A stretch of 64,000 nt of DNA, taken from positions 1-64,000 of the IMG/VR virus record IMGVR_UViG_3300031999_000009, one strand, 5' to 3'. The stretch comes from a virus. Below, piece by piece: positions 15,074 to 63,968 of the stretch (position 1 is the stretch's first letter; each line of letters starts with the position of its first letter). The notes beneath the pieces were generated by a model. It was not told the origin of the DNA. It did no database searches and saw only the letters and a program-made list of their open reading frames with translations. The translations under genes were made by a program, and so were the position numbers.

Positions 15074-16780
15074 ATGAACAAGGTGATCCTGTCCTGGCCG
15101 AGCCTTATCCAGCTCGCCGAGGCTACCGCCGGTTCAGCGTCGCGCTCGTGGATTCAACTCGCTCGCACCGGCTCATTCGTGAGCAACCGCTACGGGAAGT
15201 TCAGCATCACGCGGGAAGACCTCACGACGATGCTGTCGAACTTCAACGACATCACGCCGAAGGCTCCCACGGAGCTCCCTATCGACTACGACCACCTCAG
15301 CATGGACCCCAAGAAGCCCGGCGACGGGATGGCGGCCGGGTGGATGAAGAAGCTGGAGCTGCGCGGAGACGGCGAAGAGCTGTGGGCCGAGGTCGAGTGG
15401 ACGCCAGATGGGGCTGCCCGCATCGCCAAGAAGGAATACCGCTTCGTCTCGCCATCGTTCGTGAAAGATCACACGCACAAGGATGGCAAGAAGATCGGGA
15501 CGACGCTCCTGGCTGCGGCGATCACGAACCATCCCTTCCTCGAAGGAATGAAGGCGCTGACCCTTTACAATTTCTCCGCGATGGGCGATGTGGCGTTGAA
15601 CACGGACGCCGCGCTCGAAGTGGTCAACTTGGCTGAAATCGGTCAGCGCGTCATGATCGCGCCGGGCAATGCGCGCACGCAGGACGAAATCGGTGGCACC
15701 TTCGAAATCACAGAGGCCGTGGGCGAGGGCGATGACTGTTTCGTGACCGTCAAGGACGCGAACGGCGTGCCGCACAAGTGGTTCCGCGCCACGGAACTGC
15801 TGCCCGCGAGCGCGACGCCCGCCAACCCGATTCAACCGAATCTGGTGCCAGCGCCAGCCGAAGGGGACATCGCGGCGCCGCATCCAGACATTGCCACCGC
15901 GACGGCCGCTGTGGCCAGCAAGCCTGCGGCGCCAGCGACACCCGCAGTTCCAGGCGATCCCGCAGCGGCTGGGAAAGCGGCCAGCGATGCGGCTCAGGCT
16001 GGAGACAAGCCAGACGACCCTGACAAGCCTGCCGAGGCTGCCTCGCCCGACGCTCAGAAGCCTGGTGATGCGGCTGGCGAAAACGAGAAAAAAGTAGCAT
16101 CTGGCGAGAAAACGCCGCAAAATGTTGGCGCAGGCAATGACGTCGAAGCGCTGATCAAGCAGAAAGTCGCCGCTGCACTCGCAGGGGCACATCCGAAGGG
16201 GACCGCGAACATGATGTTCAAGCTCCGTAACGACAAGAACGAAGAAATCGAAGTCACGGCCGAGCAGCTTGCCGCGGCGGGCATCAACGTGGTTCCTGAA
16301 GGCGCCACCGCGATTCCGACGGCGGAGCTGGACACGATGAAGGGCACGATCACCAACCTGTCGAGCCGGCTCGACACGATGGCGGCCGAGTCGGTCAAGT
16401 CGGCGAAGGCCGCGCGTGTGATCGAGCTCAACACCGAGCTGACGCGCCTCTCGACGGCTGGCCTCATCACCAAGGCCACGCGCGACAAGCTCTTCGAGCT
16501 CTACCAGGACGCTGCGGATCTCGCGCCGTTCCGTTCGCTGGCAAGCACGTTCACGACGCCGGTCGTGCAGCTGAACACCGAGCACGGGTCGGGCGGCAAG
16601 GCCGAAGCGACCGAAGTGCCGAAGGGCGAGGACGCGACGAAGAAGATCATCGCGCTCGCGAACACGATCGCCAAGGAGCGCGGCATTTCGCTGCGCGATG
16701 CGACGATCGCCGCCGGCGCCCAGCTGGGCCCGGAGTCGGAAGCGTATCGCGACCAGTTCATGCCGACCGTCGGCGCGTAA
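15074..16780 (+). CDS. Mu gpI-like prohead protease with C-terminal scaffold
   Basis: LPIDYDH, AAGW, LWAEVEWT, EYRFVSPSF, AAITNHPFL; helical C-terminus. Confidence 0.9.
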   Translation: MNKVILSWPSLIQLAEATAGSASRSWIQLARTGSFVSNRYGKFSITREDLTTMLSNFNDITPKAPTELPIDYDHLSMDPKKPGDGMAAGWMKKLELRGDGEELWAEVEWTPDGAARIAKKEYRFVSPSFVKDHTHKDGKKIGTTLLAAAITNHPFLEGMKALTLYNFSAMGDVALNTDAALEVVNLAEIGQRVMIAPGNARTQDEIGGTFEITEAVGEGDDCFVTVKDANGVPHKWFRATELLPASATPANPIQPNLVPAPAEGDIAAPHPDIATATAAVASKPAAPATPAVPGDPAAAGKAASDAAQAGDKPDDPDKPAEAASPDAQKPGDAAGENEKKVASGEKTPQNVGAGNDVEALIKQKVAAALAGAHPKGTANMMFKLRNDKNEEIEVTAEQLAAAGINVVPEGATAIPTAELDTMKGTITNLSSRLDTMAAESVKSAKAARVIELNTELTRLSTAGLITKATRDKLFELYQDAADLAPFRSLASTFTTPVVQLNTEHGSGGKAEATEVPKGEDATKKIIALANTIAKERGISLRDATIAAGAQLGPESEAYRDQFMPTVGA

Positions 16781-16790
16781 ACGAGTTAGG

Positions 16791-16957
16791 CGACCAGTGT
16801 AGGGCTCCGCTTCCAACGGAGCCTGAAGCCGCAGGCTAGCCTCCTGCGGTGAGGAAGGGATTCCTCGTATTGGTCGACAGGGGCTGCAAGGGATTTTGGC
16901 CTCCCTGCCATCGCGGTTGAAACCGCGGTCGCAGTGGAGGCTTTTCTTTTGTAGCCC
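16791..16957 (+). ncRNA. Structured intergenic RNA (four-way junction plus long hairpin)
   Basis: Closing stem 16791-16799/16868-16876, three hairpins, then a rod at 16881-16957. Confidence 0.55.
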
Positions 16958-16989
16958 GCACCTCTTTCACCGTAATAGGAGACGAGCAC

Positions 16990-17385
16990 ATGCGCGTAAA
17001 TCTTGTCGGACAGGACATCACGCTCGAAGCGGCGGCGGACCTGTCGACGCACCAATACAAGTTCCTCAAGGGTGCGGCGGCCGTCGCGGGCGGCCAGCTG
17101 GCACGCGTTGACGTGGCCGGCGCCAACGAGCGGTGCTTCGGCATCCTTCAGAACAAGCCGAACGCGGCGGGCCTGGGCGCCGTCGTGCGTATCGACGGAC
17201 GGTCGAAGTTGCAGACCGACGCGAGCGCGATTCTTGTCGGCTCACCCGTGAAGTCCGGCGCGCTCGGCGTGGGCGTGCTGGCGGGCACCGACAAGGACAA
17301 GGTTGGCGCGATCTCGTTGGAGGCGAACGGTTCGGTCGCCATCATCATCGACGCGCTGATCTGCAACTACGACCTCGCGGTCTAG
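16990..17385 (+). CDS. Capsid cement/decoration protein (DUF2190-like)
   Basis: AAADLS..QYKF, GILQNKP; directly before the major capsid gene. Confidence 0.8.
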   Translation: MRVNLVGQDITLEAAADLSTHQYKFLKGAAAVAGGQLARVDVAGANERCFGILQNKPNAAGLGAVVRIDGRSKLQTDASAILVGSPVKSGALGVGVLAGTDKDKVGAISLEANGSVAIIIDALICNYDLAV

Positions 17386-48277: not shown

Positions 48278-48306
48278 TTGACTTCTGCCAGGATTGATAG
48301 TATCAT
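48278..48306 (+). promoter_or_regulatory. Early promoter copy 1
   Basis: TTGACT-17 bp-TATCAT containing the TGATAGTATCA palindrome. Confidence 0.85.
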
Positions 48307-48353
48307 CGTCCTAGATGAAGCACGTCCAATGACGGACGGCTAGGAGGTGCCAC

Positions 48354-54763: not shown

Positions 54764-55908
54764 CCTGGGAGTTTGCGTCGAAGTCTAGCAGTGCTGTTCA
54801 CACCGTGACGCTCCACCCCTCTGGCGAACTCGTGTGCACGTGCAGCGGCTGGCGTTTCAAGAAGCCTGGCAAGCCACGTGAGTGCACGCACATGACGGGG
54901 CTCATCAAAAAGAATTCGTGGTCACGGGACGTGAAGGGCGACCTCGTGATCATCAAAGAATCCGTCGAAAATAGTCCGAATTCGGTCGTGCCTCTCTTGA
55001 CTCCGCCTGTCGATGATAGTATCATTGTTCTTGTAGGAGGGACACCAACAATGAACACAACGATGACCACCCCCACTCAGACGGCCCCGGACGCGCAGCT
55101 TGCGGTGGGCATGACCACCCCGGTGAGCGGTGCGGCGTTCAACGAAAAATATGGCGACGGCACCTGGTCGATGGACGAGAAGCTCGACGGCCACCGGTGC
55201 TTGGTCGTGAAGCGCGGCGAGGACATCAAGTGCTGGTCACGCGGCGGCGCCGGTCGTGCCAGCCTCGAAAAGAAAGTGACCCCAGCCATCCTGTCCGCCA
55301 TCGCGCAGATGCCCGACGGCATCTACGACGGCGAGCTGATGATTCCCGGCGGCAACTCATGGAACGTGGTGGACCTGGCCAGGCAGCACGAGCTGGTGGT
55401 CATCCTGTTCGACGTGCAGGAGATTCTGGGCCAGAACGTGTGCAAGGAACCACAGTCCATGCGGCGCGACCTGCTCGCGCAGGCGGTGGCGCACGTGAAG
55501 ACGGACGCGGTGCGGTTGGTGGCCAGCTTCACGCCGGAGTGGGCGGTCATCGAAAAGATTTGGGCCGAGGGTGGCGAGGGCGTCATCGTCAAAAAGAATT
55601 CTGCCCCCTACCGCCCCGGCTACCGGTCGGATGCGTGGGTCAAGGTGAAGCAGCTGATGTCGGTGGTCGGCGTCATTACCGGGTTCAAGGCTGGCTCGTT
55701 CGGTCCCCACTCAGTAACCTGCGTGACCCTGGACAGCGGCGTCAAAACCCAGGTCAAGACACTGGACACCGTGACGCTGGCGGCGATCGAAAAAAATCCC
55801 GAATCTTTCCTCGGCCACCGACTGGTGATTCAGTGCCAGCAGGTGGTGGCGTCGAGCGGCTGCCCGCGTCATCCGATGTGGGACCACATGGCGGGAGACA
55901 CGGAATGA
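54760..55908 (+). CDS. SWIM finger plus ATP-dependent DNA ligase; internal start at 55051
   Basis: CTCSGW..CTH; EKLDGHR, YDGEL, LFDV, EGVIVK, WVKVK. Confidence 0.88.
   Translation: MTWEFASKSSSAVHTVTLHPSGELVCTCSGWRFKKPGKPRECTHMTGLIKKNSWSRDVKGDLVIIKESVENSPNSVVPLLTPPVDDSIIVLVGGTPTMNTTMTTPTQTAPDAQLAVGMTTPVSGAAFNEKYGDGTWSMDEKLDGHRCLVVKRGEDIKCWSRGGAGRASLEKKVTPAILSAIAQMPDGIYDGELMIPGGNSWNVVDLARQHELVVILFDVQEILGQNVCKEPQSMRRDLLAQAVAHVKTDAVRLVASFTPEWAVIEKIWAEGGEGVIVKKNSAPYRPGYRSDAWVKVKQLMSVVGVITGFKAGSFGPHSVTCVTLDSGVKTQVKTLDTVTLAAIEKNPESFLGHRLVIQCQQVVASSGCPRHPMWDHMAGDTE
54997..55025 (+). promoter_or_regulatory. Early promoter copy 4, inside an ORF
   Basis: TTGACT-17 bp-TATCAT, then AGGAGG and ATG at 55051. 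Confidence 0.85.
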
Positions 55909-59754: not shown

Positions 59755-60987
59755 GTGAGCTTCGTCCTGCGCGACTACCAAGAAAACGCCGTATCGCGAG
59801 GCGTGCAATTCTTGAAGTCTGGCACTGGCGGCGGCTTGGTCGTGCTGCCGACCGGTGCTGGCAAGTCGTTGGTCATCGCCGGCATCGCCAGTCGCCTGGA
59901 TGGTCCGTGCCTGATTTTCCAGCCGTCGCGCGAAATCCTCCAGCAGAACGCAACGAAGTTGCTGGCGTATGGCTACGAGCCGTCCGTCTACTCCGCGTCG
60001 ATGGGCGTGAAGGAGGTTGGCCACATTACGCTGGCGACCATCGGAAGCGTGAAGGCGCGACCGGACTTGTTCGACGCCTTCCCCTACATCATGGTGGATG
60101 AGGCCCACCTGGTGAATGCCAAGTCCGGCATGTATCAGGAGTTCATCGAGTCCATGGGCGACGTGCGCGTCCTGGGGTTGACGGCAACGCCGTTCCGACT
60201 GTCGACCGATGGCTACGGTGGTTCGCAGTTGAAGTTTCTGACACGCACCAGGCCGCGCTTCTTTCACACGGTCGTGGCCTATGCCCAAATCCCAGACCTG
60301 ATCCAGCGCGGCTATCTGTTCAAGCCGGAATACCAGGCCGTGACTGGCTTCACGGCCTCGGCTTTGAAGCTGAACACGACAGGCGCGGACTACACGGACG
60401 ATTCCGTGAAGCGCCATTTCAACCAGATCGGCTTCGCTGACCGCCTGCGCCGCATCGTCCTGCGTCTCTTGGAAGTGGGGCGCCGGAATGTGCTGGTCTT
60501 CACGCGGTTCGTAGATGAGGCCGAAGCGCTGGCGCGCACCGTGCCTGGCACGGCCGTCGTGACGGCAGCTACGAAGTCGCACGAGCGCGAGCAAATCATC
60601 GCAGACTTCAGGTCTGGCGTGATCAAGGTGGTGGCGAACGTCGGCGTGCTGGGCTTGGGCTTCGACTTCCCTGAGCTGGAGACGGTGGTGCTGGCCAGGC
60701 CGACCGTTTCGCTGGCGCTCTACTATCAGCAGGTCGGGCGCCTGCTGCGACCACACCCCGCGAAGACGTCCGCGTGGGTGGTGGACATGGTTGATCAGGT
60801 CCGTCAGTTTGGGCCGATCGAAAACTTGTGGCTTCAACCAGGCGGACCCAGTGGGATGCTCTGGGAGATGGTGACGCGCACGGATGGCGTGACGAAGCCG
60901 TTGACGAACACGTATTTCGGTGGCGATCCGACGGGACGACGAAAGAAGTGGGATCGCAAGCGGAAGTGGGGAACCAATGGACGTTGA
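59755..60987 (+). CDS. SF2 DEAH-box helicase (RadD/YejH-like)
   Basis: LRDYQ, PTGAGKS, VDEAH, GLTATP, GFDFP, QQVGR.LR. Confidence 0.93.
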   Translation: MSFVLRDYQENAVSRGVQFLKSGTGGGLVVLPTGAGKSLVIAGIASRLDGPCLIFQPSREILQQNATKLLAYGYEPSVYSASMGVKEVGHITLATIGSVKARPDLFDAFPYIMVDEAHLVNAKSGMYQEFIESMGDVRVLGLTATPFRLSTDGYGGSQLKFLTRTRPRFFHTVVAYAQIPDLIQRGYLFKPEYQAVTGFTASALKLNTTGADYTDDSVKRHFNQIGFADRLRRIVLRLLEVGRRNVLVFTRFVDEAEALARTVPGTAVVTAATKSHEREQIIADFRSGVIKVVANVGVLGLGFDFPELETVVLARPTVSLALYYQQVGRLLRPHPAKTSAWVVDMVDQVRQFGPIENLWLQPGGPSGMLWEMVTRTDGVTKPLTNTYFGGDPTGRRKKWDRKRKWGTNGR

Positions 60988-61213
60988 GCAGGCAGATTCG
61001 TCGCATGAGAAATGGGCAGACACAGCCGAATTGGTGGCCGAGAACCCGGCCGCGGCCACCGCGAAGTCGTTGCGGTTGGCGTTGGCGTATCTGTCGTATC
61101 GGCGGGCGGCGCTCATCTTGAACGCGCGCCGCAAGAAGCGAGAGCCCTCCGAAAAGAAGTTGGCAGCGATCGACGCGCGGTTGCAGCACTACGCCGAATT
61201 GCTTCAGAAATAG
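60977..61213 (+). CDS. Hypothetical protein
   Basis: Overlaps the helicase end; helical. Confidence 0.55.
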   Translation: MDVEQADSSHEKWADTAELVAENPAAATAKSLRLALAYLSYRRAALILNARRKKREPSEKKLAAIDARLQHYAELLQK

Positions 61214-61237
61214 TCAAAGAATTCGGAGACGAAGGTG

Positions 61238-61266
61238 TTGACTCCTGCGCCCTTTGATAGTATCAT
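61238..61266 (+). promoter_or_regulatory. Early promoter copy 5
   Basis: TTGACT-17 bp-TATCAT. Confidence 0.85.
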
Positions 61267-61272
61267 TATTCT

Positions 61273-61682
61273 TGTAAGGAGGGGTGGGCGGCCGGAGGGG
61301 CTGTCACCGCGCCGGGTCAGAAGAGGGCCCGAACGCTCACCCACTTTGACAACTGAATCAGTCCAACGTGACCGGGCCCGAGTGGGTCGGGTTGCAGGAG
61401 ACGGCCGACATATCCGGTAGGGACGCCAGCGCCGGACACACTAAGGCCGGGAGACATCTCCCCTGTAGGAACGCTGAAGTTACGTTGGACTGATTGGGTT
61501 GTCGGGGACACACGCCGGCGCGCGCAAGGGCAAGCGATTCCGCACGGACAAGCACTTCCGGGCGTTGCCCGATACGAAGGCGCCCTGTATCGGGAAAGGC
61601 GACGGCGGCCTTGACGACCCGCACTCTGCGTCGGATGTTAGGTTCAAGTAATTGGACCCATGCACGAAAGGTCCGACGCGCA
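61273..61682 (+). ncRNA. Large structured ncRNA or leader of unknown class
   Basis: No credible ORF; stem of about 25 bp at 61345-61372/61479-61506 and several other helices. Confidence 0.65.
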
Positions 61683-61693
61683 CTTTGGAGGCG

Positions 61694-62071
61694 ATGATGA
61701 CGACTCAGTTCACGCTCATTCAGTTCACGCTCCTCACCAAGCAACGCCGCCGTATCGTCCGCCAGGAACCGTGCTGGCTGGCGACGGCGTCGTTCGCTGA
61801 CGGGCCAGGGATGAAGGTCAAGAAGATGACCACCACGCGAGATATCCAGAAGGCGGCTCGCTTCAGTCTCGTGACTGCGCACAACATCGCGGTCCAGTTC
61901 TCACACCTGCCGGCATCGCTGGTTCGACCGGACGGGTCGGTCCTCGAGGCCGAGTCGTCTGCGGTGCAGGCGGAACAGCGTCGGCGACACGACGAGCACC
62001 ACCGCCTGAAGCGGGACATGAACCGAGACTTGAACGCCCTGTTCGAGTCGGCTGCGGAGATGCTGCGATGA
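61694..62071 (+). CDS. Hypothetical protein
   Basis: GGAGG RBS. Confidence 0.65.
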   Translation: MMTTQFTLIQFTLLTKQRRRIVRQEPCWLATASFADGPGMKVKKMTTTRDIQKAARFSLVTAHNIAVQFSHLPASLVRPDGSVLEAESSAVQAEQRRRHDEHHRLKRDMNRDLNALFESAAEMLR

Positions 62072-62220
62072 GCAAGACCAGCGACTGGGCCATCCGCGTG
62101 CTGAACGAGGAGCCGCCCTTGAACAAATACGAGCGCGTGGTGCGCTACGACGCGTCGATGCTCAGGATGCAACGCATCTGGGCCTACCTTCTGAAAAGAA
62201 AGATGAGGCTCTACCGATGA
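62068..62220 (+). CDS. Small hypothetical protein
   Basis: ATGA-coupled at both ends. Confidence 0.5.
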   Translation: MSKTSDWAIRVLNEEPPLNKYERVVRYDASMLRMQRIWAYLLKRKMRLYR

Positions 62221-62543
62221 AGCGCACACGCGCCAGTCTGCAGTTGGCCGAACTTCGGAAGCTGCGTGAGATTGCCCACGAGTGCCTCGAAGGTCGCGCC
62301 TGCCCATTCTGCGGCGAGCCGCTGCTGACGACCACCAACATCTACGCACCTGGTGACGGGATGGCGTCCCCCATCAATGCGGACCTCACACTGCATCACC
62401 GCGACGGCAACCACGCGAACAACGCGAAGACGAACCGCGTGTGGGCACACCGGCGTTGCCACAAGTCGTTCCACATGACCGAGCGCCATTTGGCCCGAAA
62501 GAAAGCATCGAATTTAGGCAAAGAATTAGCCCACACAGCTTGA
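62217..62543 (+). CDS. HNH endonuclease
   Basis: CPFC...LHHRDGNHANN...N...HRRCH. Confidence 0.85.
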   Translation: MKRTRASLQLAELRKLREIAHECLEGRACPFCGEPLLTTTNIYAPGDGMASPINADLTLHHRDGNHANNAKTNRVWAHRRCHKSFHMTERHLARKKASNLGKELAHTA

Positions 62544-62568
62544 CTCGCTGCCGGATTGATAGTATCAT
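62540..62568 (+). promoter_or_regulatory. Early promoter copy 6
   Basis: TTGACT-17 bp-TATCAT. Confidence 0.85.
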
Positions 62569-62630
62569 CGTTTGGTAAGGTGATGACGACCACTTCGGCA
62601 ACCACGGTGACTACGAAGGAGACGACGACA

Positions 62631-63431
62631 ATGGCCATGCGCTCAATCCTCAACTTGAACATCAGCCTCGGAATGTTCGGCTTCCCGGTCAAGGTTTACA
62701 AGGCAGTGAACGACCCCGCGGAGGGCATCTCGTTCCGCCAGGTGCACGCAGCGTGCGGCACCCCGATCAACCAGGTGAAGCGCTGCTCCTGCTGCAACGT
62801 CGACGTGACGCAGGCGGAGCTGGTCAAGGGCTACGAGCAGCCCGGTGGCCCGATGCTGATCTTCCAAGAGGACGAGATCAAGGCCCTCAAGCCCGAGGCG
62901 ATGGGCACGGTCAAGGTCGACGGCTACCTCGCCGCTGACGAAATCGACCCCTGTTACCAGGACGGCCCCATCTACTACTTGTCACCTGACCGCGGCACCA
63001 ACAAGAAGGGCGACTGCGACACGTTCACCACCTGGCGCGACGCGCTGGCTGGCCGGTGGGCCATCGGCAAGGTCGTCATGTATGGCCGCGAGCACGTGGT
63101 GGCGATTCGCAGCGTCGACCGCCTCTTGGCGATGCACTTCATTCGGACCCACTCGGAGATTCGCAACGTGTTCGACGTGCCGGCCTACGACACGGTGCCG
63201 GAGACGAGCAAGAGCGAATACGCCGAGCTGATGGGCCAGCTCATTCGCAAGTCCACCATCGCGTTCGACGACGTGGTGCTGGAGTCTGACGCCTACACGG
63301 ACTCGGTGAAGGCGCTGATCGAGTCGCGCAAGGCAGGCCAGCCCGCTCCGGCGCAGGCTGAGTTCAAGCCCGCGTCCACCGGTGGCGACCTGCTCGCGAT
63401 GCTGAAGGCGTCATTGGCGGCTCAGGCGTGA
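62631..63431 (+). CDS. ku: Ku DNA end-binding protein
   Basis: ISLG...PVKVYKA, ISFRQVH, LVKGYE, YYLSP, GREH.V, DLLAMLKASL. Confidence 0.92.
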   Translation: MAMRSILNLNISLGMFGFPVKVYKAVNDPAEGISFRQVHAACGTPINQVKRCSCCNVDVTQAELVKGYEQPGGPMLIFQEDEIKALKPEAMGTVKVDGYLAADEIDPCYQDGPIYYLSPDRGTNKKGDCDTFTTWRDALAGRWAIGKVVMYGREHVVAIRSVDRLLAMHFIRTHSEIRNVFDVPAYDTVPETSKSEYAELMGQLIRKSTIAFDDVVLESDAYTDSVKALIESRKAGQPAPAQAEFKPASTGGDLLAMLKASLAAQA

Positions 63432-63497
63432 TCAAGATGGTAAACCCGCAACTGGGAGCAGGTGCGCCCTGTTCCCCTCTCTCTCTGGAGGAGGACC

Positions 63498-63968
63498 ATG
63501 TCAGAACCGATCGGGATTGCACCGAAACGAAAGTTCACTGTCAACCAGTTCGATCTCGCGAATGCAATTCCTAACTGCCCGGCGCACTGCGCCATTGCGC
63601 TCGCTATTGAGCGGACCTATGGCGCAACGAATGTGAGGGTCGGTAGCACCAGGGACGGCCGGATCGCTTTCACCATCGGAAACAAGCGTTACGTTTACCC
63701 GGGCATTCCCCGTGCGGCGATCGAGTGTCAGTATCTCGTTGACGCCGGACAGGCCAACCGCGTAGCTCCATTTACCGTGAATCTTGAGCACGGCTTCGTT
63801 CACAAAGTTGGGCAAAGCCCCTCCAGCAACCCAAAGCGGAAGCGCCGTGGTCACTGGCAGCGGAAGGCGTCGCGGAGCCCGCGTGGCGTGCCCTACTCTC
63901 GGACGCTAAGGCGCGAGCTCGAACAGCGACAACTCGAGGCTCTTTCCACTGGGACACACGTCAGATGA
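63498..63968 (+). CDS. Hypothetical protein
   Basis: GGAGG RBS; HCAIALAI motif. Confidence 0.65.
   Translation: MSEPIGIAPKRKFTVNQFDLANAIPNCPAHCAIALAIERTYGATNVRVGSTRDGRIAFTIGNKRYVYPGIPRAAIECQYLVDAGQANRVAPFTVNLEHGFVHKVGQSPSSNPKRKRRGHWQRKASRSPRGVPYSRTLRRELEQRQLEALSTGTHVR

Follow-up and report, generated by a model that had tools for sequence, protein, structure and literature searches.

The lambda N leader and the sites in T7 early mRNA are phage early leaders and intercistronic hairpins that are processed by RNase III, an enzyme whose substrates are intramolecular duplexes of about two helical turns or more. In T4, hairpins at mobE and I-TevI sequester the ribosome-binding site and delay the translation of phage homing-endonuclease operons. 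RNase III recognises stems formed within one RNA and influences how its targets mature, how stable they are and how they are translated (PMC6212723). Here we analyse a stretch of about 410 nt (positions 61273–61682) in a 64,000-nt window taken from the start of one virus record of 83,273 nt (IMGVR_UViG_3300031999_000009, estimated to be 68% complete), which a sequence-only reading had described as a new large non-coding RNA (ncRNA) under its own early promoter. We favour, tentatively and with a probability of roughly 0.45, that the stretch is the cis-acting 5′ leader of an accessory operon, equipped with an RNase III-type helix and a translation-control hairpin. If this is correct, the phage would be a further one in which the timing of an accessory operon depends on a long structured leader and on host RNase III. 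That would help in annotating uncultivated phages without being surprising: structured leaders of early mRNAs on accessory cassettes are nothing unusual, and this would be a new instance of them.

The leader spans 61274–61693 on the + strand (~420 nt) and precedes the genes g61697, g62068 and HNH. The promoter proposed directly before the stretch is indeed there: early promoter P5 (61215–61266, + strand) comprises an A/T-rich CAAAGAATTC upstream element, a −35 TTGACT (61238–61243), a 17-nt spacer and a −10 TATCAT (61261–61266), and from this spacing transcription would start at about 61273–61276. P5, with its TTGACT-N17-TATCAT core at 61238–61266, is the fifth of six copies in the window (48278, 49827, 53618, 54997, 61238 and 62540). 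A regular-expression scan for TTGAC-N15-20-TAGTAT returned seven copies, all on the + strand, and when the stretch was compared with the genome by BLAST an eighth came to light, also on the + strand, at genome position 82943, beyond the window. Common to all eight are an upstream A/T-rich AAAGAATT-like element, TTGACT, the 17-nt spacer and TATCAT (TATTAT at 82943). Between 60500 and 63600 there are two promoter-like sites, against a mean of 0.5 in shuffles. Behind each of the seven promoters other than P5 a start codon follows within a few to ~70 nt; only after P5 is there no usable start for ~420 nt.

From about 61274 to the ATG at 61694 or 61697 no open reading frame (ORF) with a credible start was found, and the stop-to-stop frames show nothing long. 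That the stretch is the largest non-coding gap in the window, as had been thought, is not borne out: the tRNA/tmRNA array at 368–1900 is longer, and the gene map is too crude for the other gaps to be ranked. Terminator-like sites are absent from the + strand between 60500 and 63600 (the − strand has two, with 2.6 expected), and for this reason the suggested co-transcription of the stretch with the next three genes, the third of which encodes the HNH nuclease, is probable. Of the two features that define a free-standing small RNA gene, a promoter and a terminator of its own, only the promoter is present. Without a terminator the stretch is therefore by default a 5′ untranslated region and not a free-standing RNA gene.

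The five helices named in the sequence-only reading are all found in the sequence and are seen in the minimum-free-energy fold, with CCCGATAC/GTATCGGG falling within inverted repeat I8 and GCGTCGGA/TCCGACGC within inverted repeat I3. Folding was compared with 200 dinucleotide shuffles for each part of the leader and with 100 for the whole. The whole 423 nt folds better than shuffled sequence, with a z-score of −4.20 on the + strand (0 of 100 shuffles as good) and −2.18 on the − strand (2 of 100), but the excess comes almost wholly from inverted repeat I1, so that to call all 410 nt highly structured goes too far; only ~160 nt exceed chance. This domain (fold of 61345–61506) reaches z −5.74 on the + and −5.18 on the − strand. 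The first part, 61273–61347, is not significant (−1.74 on the + and −0.4 on the − strand), 61504–61627 is like shuffled sequence (+0.57), and 61620–61700 scores −2.61 on the + and −1.62 on the − strand. All four regional folds favour the + strand over the − strand. In a genome-wide scan of 8312 windows of 160 nt on both strands, with energies corrected for dinucleotide content, the window 61341–61500 ranks 12th, at about the fifth distinct locus, while the other + strand windows starting between 61201 and 61621 lie between −1.74 and +1.75. Most hand-drawn helices in sequence of 62–68% G+C are chance, and here only the 25-nt inverted repeat survives the controls.

The long-range helix domain (61346–61505, + strand) is built from the I1 arms 61348–61372 and 61479–61503, each 25 nt long, 88% complementary and 106 nt apart; I1 is listed first of 23 inverted repeats in the window (arms of at least 17 nt, at most 400 nt apart). 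In the predicted fold of 61345–61506 the arms form about 9 bp, a 1×1 mismatch and 17 bp, with four G-U pairs, and 17 bp of this helix persist in the centroid of the whole-leader fold. The duplex of 9 bp plus 17 bp is as long as an RNase III substrate has to be. It closes a 106-nt insert (61374–61478) with a predicted branched fold that is, taken alone, no more stable than shuffled sequence (z −0.94). The G-U pairs had been read as favouring a structure at the RNA level; the four pairs, which become mismatches on the − strand, do give mild support to the + strand, but as an argument this is weak, with the z-scores of the two strands so close. The domain exists as a single copy in the genome.

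A second element lies at the ribosome-binding site of the first gene. The hairpin at 61620–61693 (+ strand) has a stem of 61628–61636 with 61671–61679 (I3), which in the predicted fold is extended by the pairing of 61620–61627 with 61687–61693, covering the GGAGG at 61687–61691 before ATG 61697. It is also kept in the centroid of the whole-leader fold. As in the T4 mobE and I-TevI systems, a hairpin, here a predicted one, is placed on the Shine-Dalgarno sequence of the first gene in an operon with a free-standing HNH nuclease; in contrast to them, the masked site belongs to g61697 and not to the nuclease, and a z-score of −2.6 is only modest.

In the favoured reading host RNA polymerase would start at P5, at ~61274, and read through the leader into g61697, g62068 and HNH. 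The ~26-bp duplex (61346–61372 with 61479–61505) is long enough to be a putative substrate of host RNase III and would most likely act as a processing or stability site, where cleavage would remove the first ~225 nt including a vestigial ribosome-binding site. Further downstream, the hairpin at 61620–61693 would pair with the Shine-Dalgarno sequence of g61697 and hold its translation down until opened or cut. Elsewhere the leader folds no better than expected by chance, and this remainder may have decayed from coding sequence. We infer all of these events (transcription from P5, read-through, RNase III cleavage and translational masking) from the sequence. The arrangement resembles the lambda N leader and the T7 sites in its strong early promoter, long untranslated 5′ region and small early genes downstream, and in an intramolecular duplex of more than two helical turns with a small internal loop. 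It differs from them in that the predicted helix is long-range and closes a 106-nt insert instead of forming a simple hairpin, and in that it sits ~190 nt upstream of the ribosome-binding site.

Several points weigh against this assignment. The helix scores almost equally well on the − strand, which makes an inverted repeat at the DNA level possible. The hairpin at the ribosome-binding site is only modestly beyond chance. A leader of 420 nt is atypical when those behind the other seven promoters measure a few to ~70 nt, and it could be recombination debris. Finally, the searches turned up no homologue of the leader that would point to selection keeping the helix.

The beginning of the leader bears directly on the question of debris. 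The 5′ domain (61277–61347, + strand) starts with a Shine-Dalgarno-like AAGGAGG (61277–61283), which is folded into the helix GGGTGGGCG/CGCTCACCC (61282–61290 with 61334–61342) and is not followed by a start codon. The leaders at 54997 and 82943 open in the same way, with TTCTTGTAAGGAGG (TTCTTGTA(A)GG). At 54997 the equivalent GGAGG is the ribosome-binding site of a gene, whereas behind P5 no start codon follows. The copy at 82943 (82943–82984) is 93% identical to P5 over 42 nt, first transcribed bases included, an indication that promoter modules move about the genome by copying or exchange. A boxA-type antitermination site at 61344–61352 was also considered and dropped: the 9-mer occurs at chance frequency (6 matches, 7.97 expected) and is evidence neither way.

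The 3′ third of the leader raises the question of coding. A TTG-initiated, ORF-like stretch of 50 codons at 61499–61651 (+ strand) lies in the same frame as g61697, ends in TAA and is separated from g61697 by this TAA and 14–15 codons. According to a codon model trained on 33 long ORFs of this phage it has a gene-like bias, with a third-position G+C content (GC3) of 0.82 and a codon log-likelihood of +11.6, a value that is reached by 2.4% of wrong-frame 50-codon windows, while 19% of true-frame windows score lower. The first ~225 nt of the leader have a negative codon score in all frames. The description of the stretch as non-coding thus stands as far as a convincing ORF with a usable start is concerned, but not for the codon bias of 61499–61651, which is like that of this phage's genes and marks a possible small gene or decayed coding remnant.

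Were it a real gene, a basic 50-aa protein would be made from the TTG and the untranslated leader would shrink to ~225 nt. The score of +11.6 is within the range of real genes nearby (HNH, +15.5 over 108 codons; g59540, +11.7 over 72 codons). However, the TTG lacks a Shine-Dalgarno site and is hidden within the 3′ arm of the long helix. The peptide matches nothing in Pfam or PHROGs and is itself missing from the called proteins on record, and no such segment precedes the N-terminus in any of the 10 g61697 homologues. A phmmer search of 1.84 billion representatives gave only three matches at E ≤ 0.001, all to long repeat proteins in 4–13 short stretches. We therefore regard a small gene here as quite improbable. 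As a side observation, the peptide near RALPDTKAPCIGKG (61547–61600; translation of 61478–61648) resembles a motif repeated many times in the 513-aa protein P0013; the match is probably due to chance, because its E-value is inflated by the repeats.

Comparison with relatives places the leader on a lineage-specific piece of DNA. The phage is uncultivated, and the same sequence is present in sediment metagenome runs, with no RNA run among those listed. Its G+C content is 60–67% and nearly every gene is on the + strand; the phage is distant from cultured ones, and mycobacteriophage Ku shares no more than 30.5% identity with its Ku protein. A scan of viral contigs with the helicase gave 21 related loci, the closest of which (L001 and L002) have a helicase 74–75% and a Ku 59–60% identical to those in the window. 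In both, Ku comes ~180 nt after the helicase, with a different promoter and a leader that is conserved between the two. A tblastn search with g60920, the ORF at 61499, g61694, g62068 and HNH found no match in any of the 21 loci. Because L001 and L002 join helicase directly to Ku and no ORF of the block is matched, the block at about 60990–62540 is a lineage-specific accessory cassette between helicase and Ku. The region is a variable one: directly past Ku, L001 and L002 diverge from one another too. With the entire block missing from the nearest relatives, the leader is not a conserved part of this phage group.

The Ku leaders of L001 (9207–9381) and L002 (9195–9361) are ~150 nt long, G+C-rich and well conserved between the two. 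The Ku leader in the window, behind promoter P6, is only ~60 nt long and shares with them just the last ~19 nt before the ATG. Homology of the P5 leader to these ~150-nt Ku leaders was rejected, as the local alignment is at shuffle level (z about 1).

The operon would then sit on a lineage-specific cassette inserted between helicase and Ku and bounded by two repeated copies of the early promoter. Promoter-early stem-loop (PeSL) cassettes of T4-type phages pair a promoter with a terminator stem-loop (PMC2839356). The likeness is in the near-identical sigma-70-like early promoters scattered among small accessory genes, and in an indel relative to close relatives that is bounded by P5 and P6, as expected from recombination between promoters. 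Repeated early promoters at indel edges are indeed what we find, with eight copies in all, P5 inside the block and P6 at its edge. What differs is that no terminator stem-loop is joined to the promoter: the scan of 60500–63600, which covered both P5 and P6, contains no terminator-like site near either, and the phage is no relative of T4. That promoters may have been shuffled here is deduced from a single comparison, with two relatives. If the favoured reading holds, the locus would show clearly, outside the T4-type phages, how repeated early promoters can mark the borders of gene cassettes that have been swapped.

The leader itself was searched for widely. BLAST found no match to it in 50,697 phage records, and none was found among plasmids or, by BLAST and nhmmer, in the 21 related loci; against five whole related records the best BLAST match had E 0.16 over 15 nt. 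A single-sequence covariance model of the helix domain gave 11.7 bits at best (E 0.51) in five records and in the phage itself hit its own site only. A pattern made from the arm core had no match in viral contigs. Its single match in genome contigs (L041; one genome per species, 185,579 species) was rejected as an unrelated longer palindrome between genes of an acidobacterial metagenome-assembled genome, with only the queried 11-mer in common. Contigs from four other sediment runs (X2–X5), where they cover the leader, are identical to it, apart from which one of them (X4) has a single G>T at 61061, and therefore offer no variation for checking the pairing. Of 12 viral loci returned by the promoter pattern, only L033 looks distantly related, and nothing in it corresponds to the leader. 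An index of features from other genomes likewise contained nothing resembling the stretch.

These results also fit a simpler history, in which the stretch would be evolutionary debris: a non-functional leftover of the recombination or insertion that built the cassette, which happens to fold. Its parts would be a duplicated promoter with an orphaned ribosome-binding site, a decayed coding remnant (61478–61651) and an inverted duplication or small mobile element (156 bp with 25-bp ends). The 93% copy of the 82943 promoter in the first ~42 nt, the AAGGAGG without a start codon, the gene-like codon bias at 61499–61651 without a usable start, folding at chance level outside the inverted repeat, nearly equal z-scores of the helix on both strands, the absence of the block from the closest relatives in a region that differs past Ku between L001 and L002 as well, and a leader sequence that is an orphan in every collection searched would all be expected of such debris. 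On the other hand, a 25-nt repeat in which only three positions depart from Watson-Crick pairing (two being G-U on the transcribed strand) has either arisen recently or been kept intact, and 420 nt of useless sequence downstream of a strong promoter would be a costly burden for a phage that leaves little space unused elsewhere. Neither a second copy in the genome nor a target-site duplication at the repeat ends was found, and among the 185,579 species genomes no element with the same arm core was found, L041 being unrelated. On balance we hold debris to be unlikely, although it is the likeliest of the rival readings.

The mobile-element version can be compared with the Correia elements of Neisseria, which are miniature inverted-repeat elements. 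Alike are the size (~156 bp), the 25-bp terminal inverted repeats, the presumed transcription and the possible duplex of RNase III size; different are the single copy, the lack of a target duplication and the lack of any further copy in the collections searched. A miniature inverted-repeat transposable element was rejected on the same grounds of a single genome copy and no target-site duplication at the flanks.

We turn to the possibility that the leader gives rise to a stable trans-acting RNA, either as its 5′ ~230 nt or as the 106-nt insert excised by RNase III, which would serve as a decoy, scaffold or guide travelling with the HNH cassette. The sequence-only reading had not recognised the class, and the search with Rfam 15 (4227 models, including group I and II introns, HEARO, GOLLD, ROOL, riboswitches, 6S and small ribozymes) matched no known family either. 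Its six gathering-level matches in the window are all tRNA or tmRNA at 368–1900, and on 61100–61800 at E ≤ 10 it returned only mir-595 (15.6 bits, with 70 required) and SNORD66 (13.4, with 32 required), which are noise and neither of which reaches E 1. Specific classes were likewise rejected. ARAGORN finds no tRNA-like gene in 61000–62000. A retron is not indicated, with 0 matches to RVT_1 (PF00078) at E ≤ 1 in the 83-kb, 68% complete record, while control genomes responded. The RNA of a HEARO or IscB (omega RNA) system was discarded because the HNH ORF has only 108 aa and no RuvC part, and because of the Rfam result. For a group I intron there is no Rfam intron match, and the flanking g60977 and g61697 are separate genes, the homologues sharing the Met start.

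Compared with HEARO and IscB RNA, GOLLD and ROOL (bioRxiv 10.1101/2024.12.08.627333), the locus is similar in having several hundred nucleotides of structured RNA near an HNH gene in a mobile context, and it differs in the lack of any Rfam match at E 1 on 61100–61800, in the 108-aa HNH without RuvC and in having only ~160 structured nucleotides.

Bacterial stable RNAs are cut from precursors that have a closing helix with a branched insert, and the layout of the helix domain matches this. The strong early promoter of its own, the absence of coding capacity from 61274–61498, the absence of a known RNA family and the preference of all folds for the + strand would also agree with a trans-acting RNA. 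Nevertheless, the insert is no more stable than its shuffled versions (z −0.94), the + strand has no terminator-like site within 60500–63600 at which the RNA would end, no relatives were found and hence no covariation, and the nearest complete relatives do without the element (G001, 100%, and G004, 94% complete by CheckV estimate). Nor was a partner found: the genome has no RVT_1 and no large RNA-guided nuclease, and the HNH protein is only 108 aa long. A stable trans-acting RNA is, in our estimate, distinctly unlikely, and its more specific form, in which a branched RNA of ~106–160 nt cut out by RNase III (or the 5′ ~230 nt) acts in trans as a decoy for host defence or as a partner of g61697, a shade less likely still. 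If true, a helix-bounded stable RNA acting in trans and moving with an HNH cassette would be a new phage RNA class. Nothing that we obtained favours it over the simpler leader reading. As for the proposal of a new large phage ncRNA, it keeps its promoter and the lack of a convincing ORF, but only ~160 nt fold beyond chance, a terminator is missing and the block is absent from the nearest relatives; a new class of large ncRNA is neither refuted nor supported beyond one helix.

A DNA-level element, such as a replication origin, a recombination or homing site of the HNH nuclease or a protein-bound inverted repeat, might be suspected, as the stretch adjoins the helicase gene, the inverted repeat has near-equal z-scores on the two strands and HNH is encoded 700 nt downstream. 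Yet there are no tandem iterons, only short repeat matches of low identity and chance type, and no A+T-rich stretch, with G+C at 0.59–0.68 across 61220–61639, while the A+T-richest 100-nt windows of the genome are at 79550–79700 (0.36–0.41). The cumulative GC skew keeps climbing across the region, dipping only slightly at 62–64 kb, arms that are 106 nt apart are unlike an operator, and the relatives replicate without the block. A DNA origin had been named as one outcome that would overturn the ncRNA proposal, and with no A+T-rich region, iterons or skew turn this objection falls away; we consider any DNA-level role very improbable. Beyond the window, 79550–79700 is itself a better candidate for an origin or packaging site than the leader.

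We now turn to the small genes of the cassette. The first, g60977 (60977–61213, + strand), encodes 78 aa from ATG 60977, with a longer ORF from GTG 60920, and overlaps the 3′ end of the helicase gene; its codon log-likelihood is +27.1, and it is absent from L001 and L002, gave no tblastn match in the 21 related loci and falls into none of the Pfam or PHROG families. Directly downstream of the leader lies g61697 (61697–62071, + strand, 124 aa), a member of a family of 11 proteins including itself at E ≤ 0.01, with 48–68% identity and 23 invariant columns. The homologues begin at the same Met, without a long N-terminal extension, and judged by this alignment g61697 is a real conserved gene. It has no family in Pfam or PHROGs, and Atlas gave only unnamed clusters (score ≤ 0.80, TM < 0.5). 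Next comes g62068 (62068–62220, + strand, 50 aa), whose start and stop overlap its neighbours, with a codon log-likelihood of +27.7 and no family match in Pfam or PHROGs. The HNH endonuclease (62217–62543, + strand, 108 aa) was assigned by phrog_1271, ‘HNH endonuclease’, at E 9.4e-08; its translation shows Cys and His-Asn-His motifs and matches HNH profiles only. At the downstream edge of the cassette, early promoter P6 (62540–62568, + strand) stands in front of Ku, which was identified by Pfam PF02735 (E 1.1e-26).

Scans of viral contigs with single proteins (g61694, g60977 and HNH) returned nothing, or one weak HNH locus (L028), and the alignment of the g61697 family (A1) found nothing in viral or genome contigs. 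One metagenome locus found with this alignment (L022) was dismissed as a false positive, with only 31% identity over 45 residues in what by eye looks like part of a cellular transport operon and not like a phage locus.

Two further features recur among the early transcripts. The leaders behind the 48278 and 82943 promoters (48306–48350 and 82972–83020) have in common a short hairpin with a stem of 5–6 bp and a loop of AATGA or ATGA, followed in both by CTAGGAGG and the start codon. This hairpin may be a common protein-binding or stabilising element of the two transcripts. Several early genes begin with runs of Met and Thr codons (ATGACGAC-type repeats), as exemplified by MMTTQ at g61697 (61694–61705), by a Thr-rich stretch before the Ku ATG (62580–62640) and by the ORF at 83024 (83024–83080); these runs may reflect a shared context for translation initiation or a low-complexity N-terminus.

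The most structured locus of the genome in the scan lies elsewhere, at 16790–16990 on the + strand (z −6.46 for the window starting at 16801; z −6.72 for the fold). It is intergenic, between a 591-aa ORF that ends at 16780 and the next ORF starting at 16990, and has no Rfam match at gathering level. The predicted fold consists of an 86-nt, cloverleaf-like four-way junction, with a 9-bp closing stem and three hairpins with loops of 7, 7 and 4 nt, and then a long hairpin, the inner part of which, together with a U-run, resembles an intrinsic terminator. On the strength of this predicted fold, 16790–16990 is a better ncRNA candidate than the stretch at 61273–61682.

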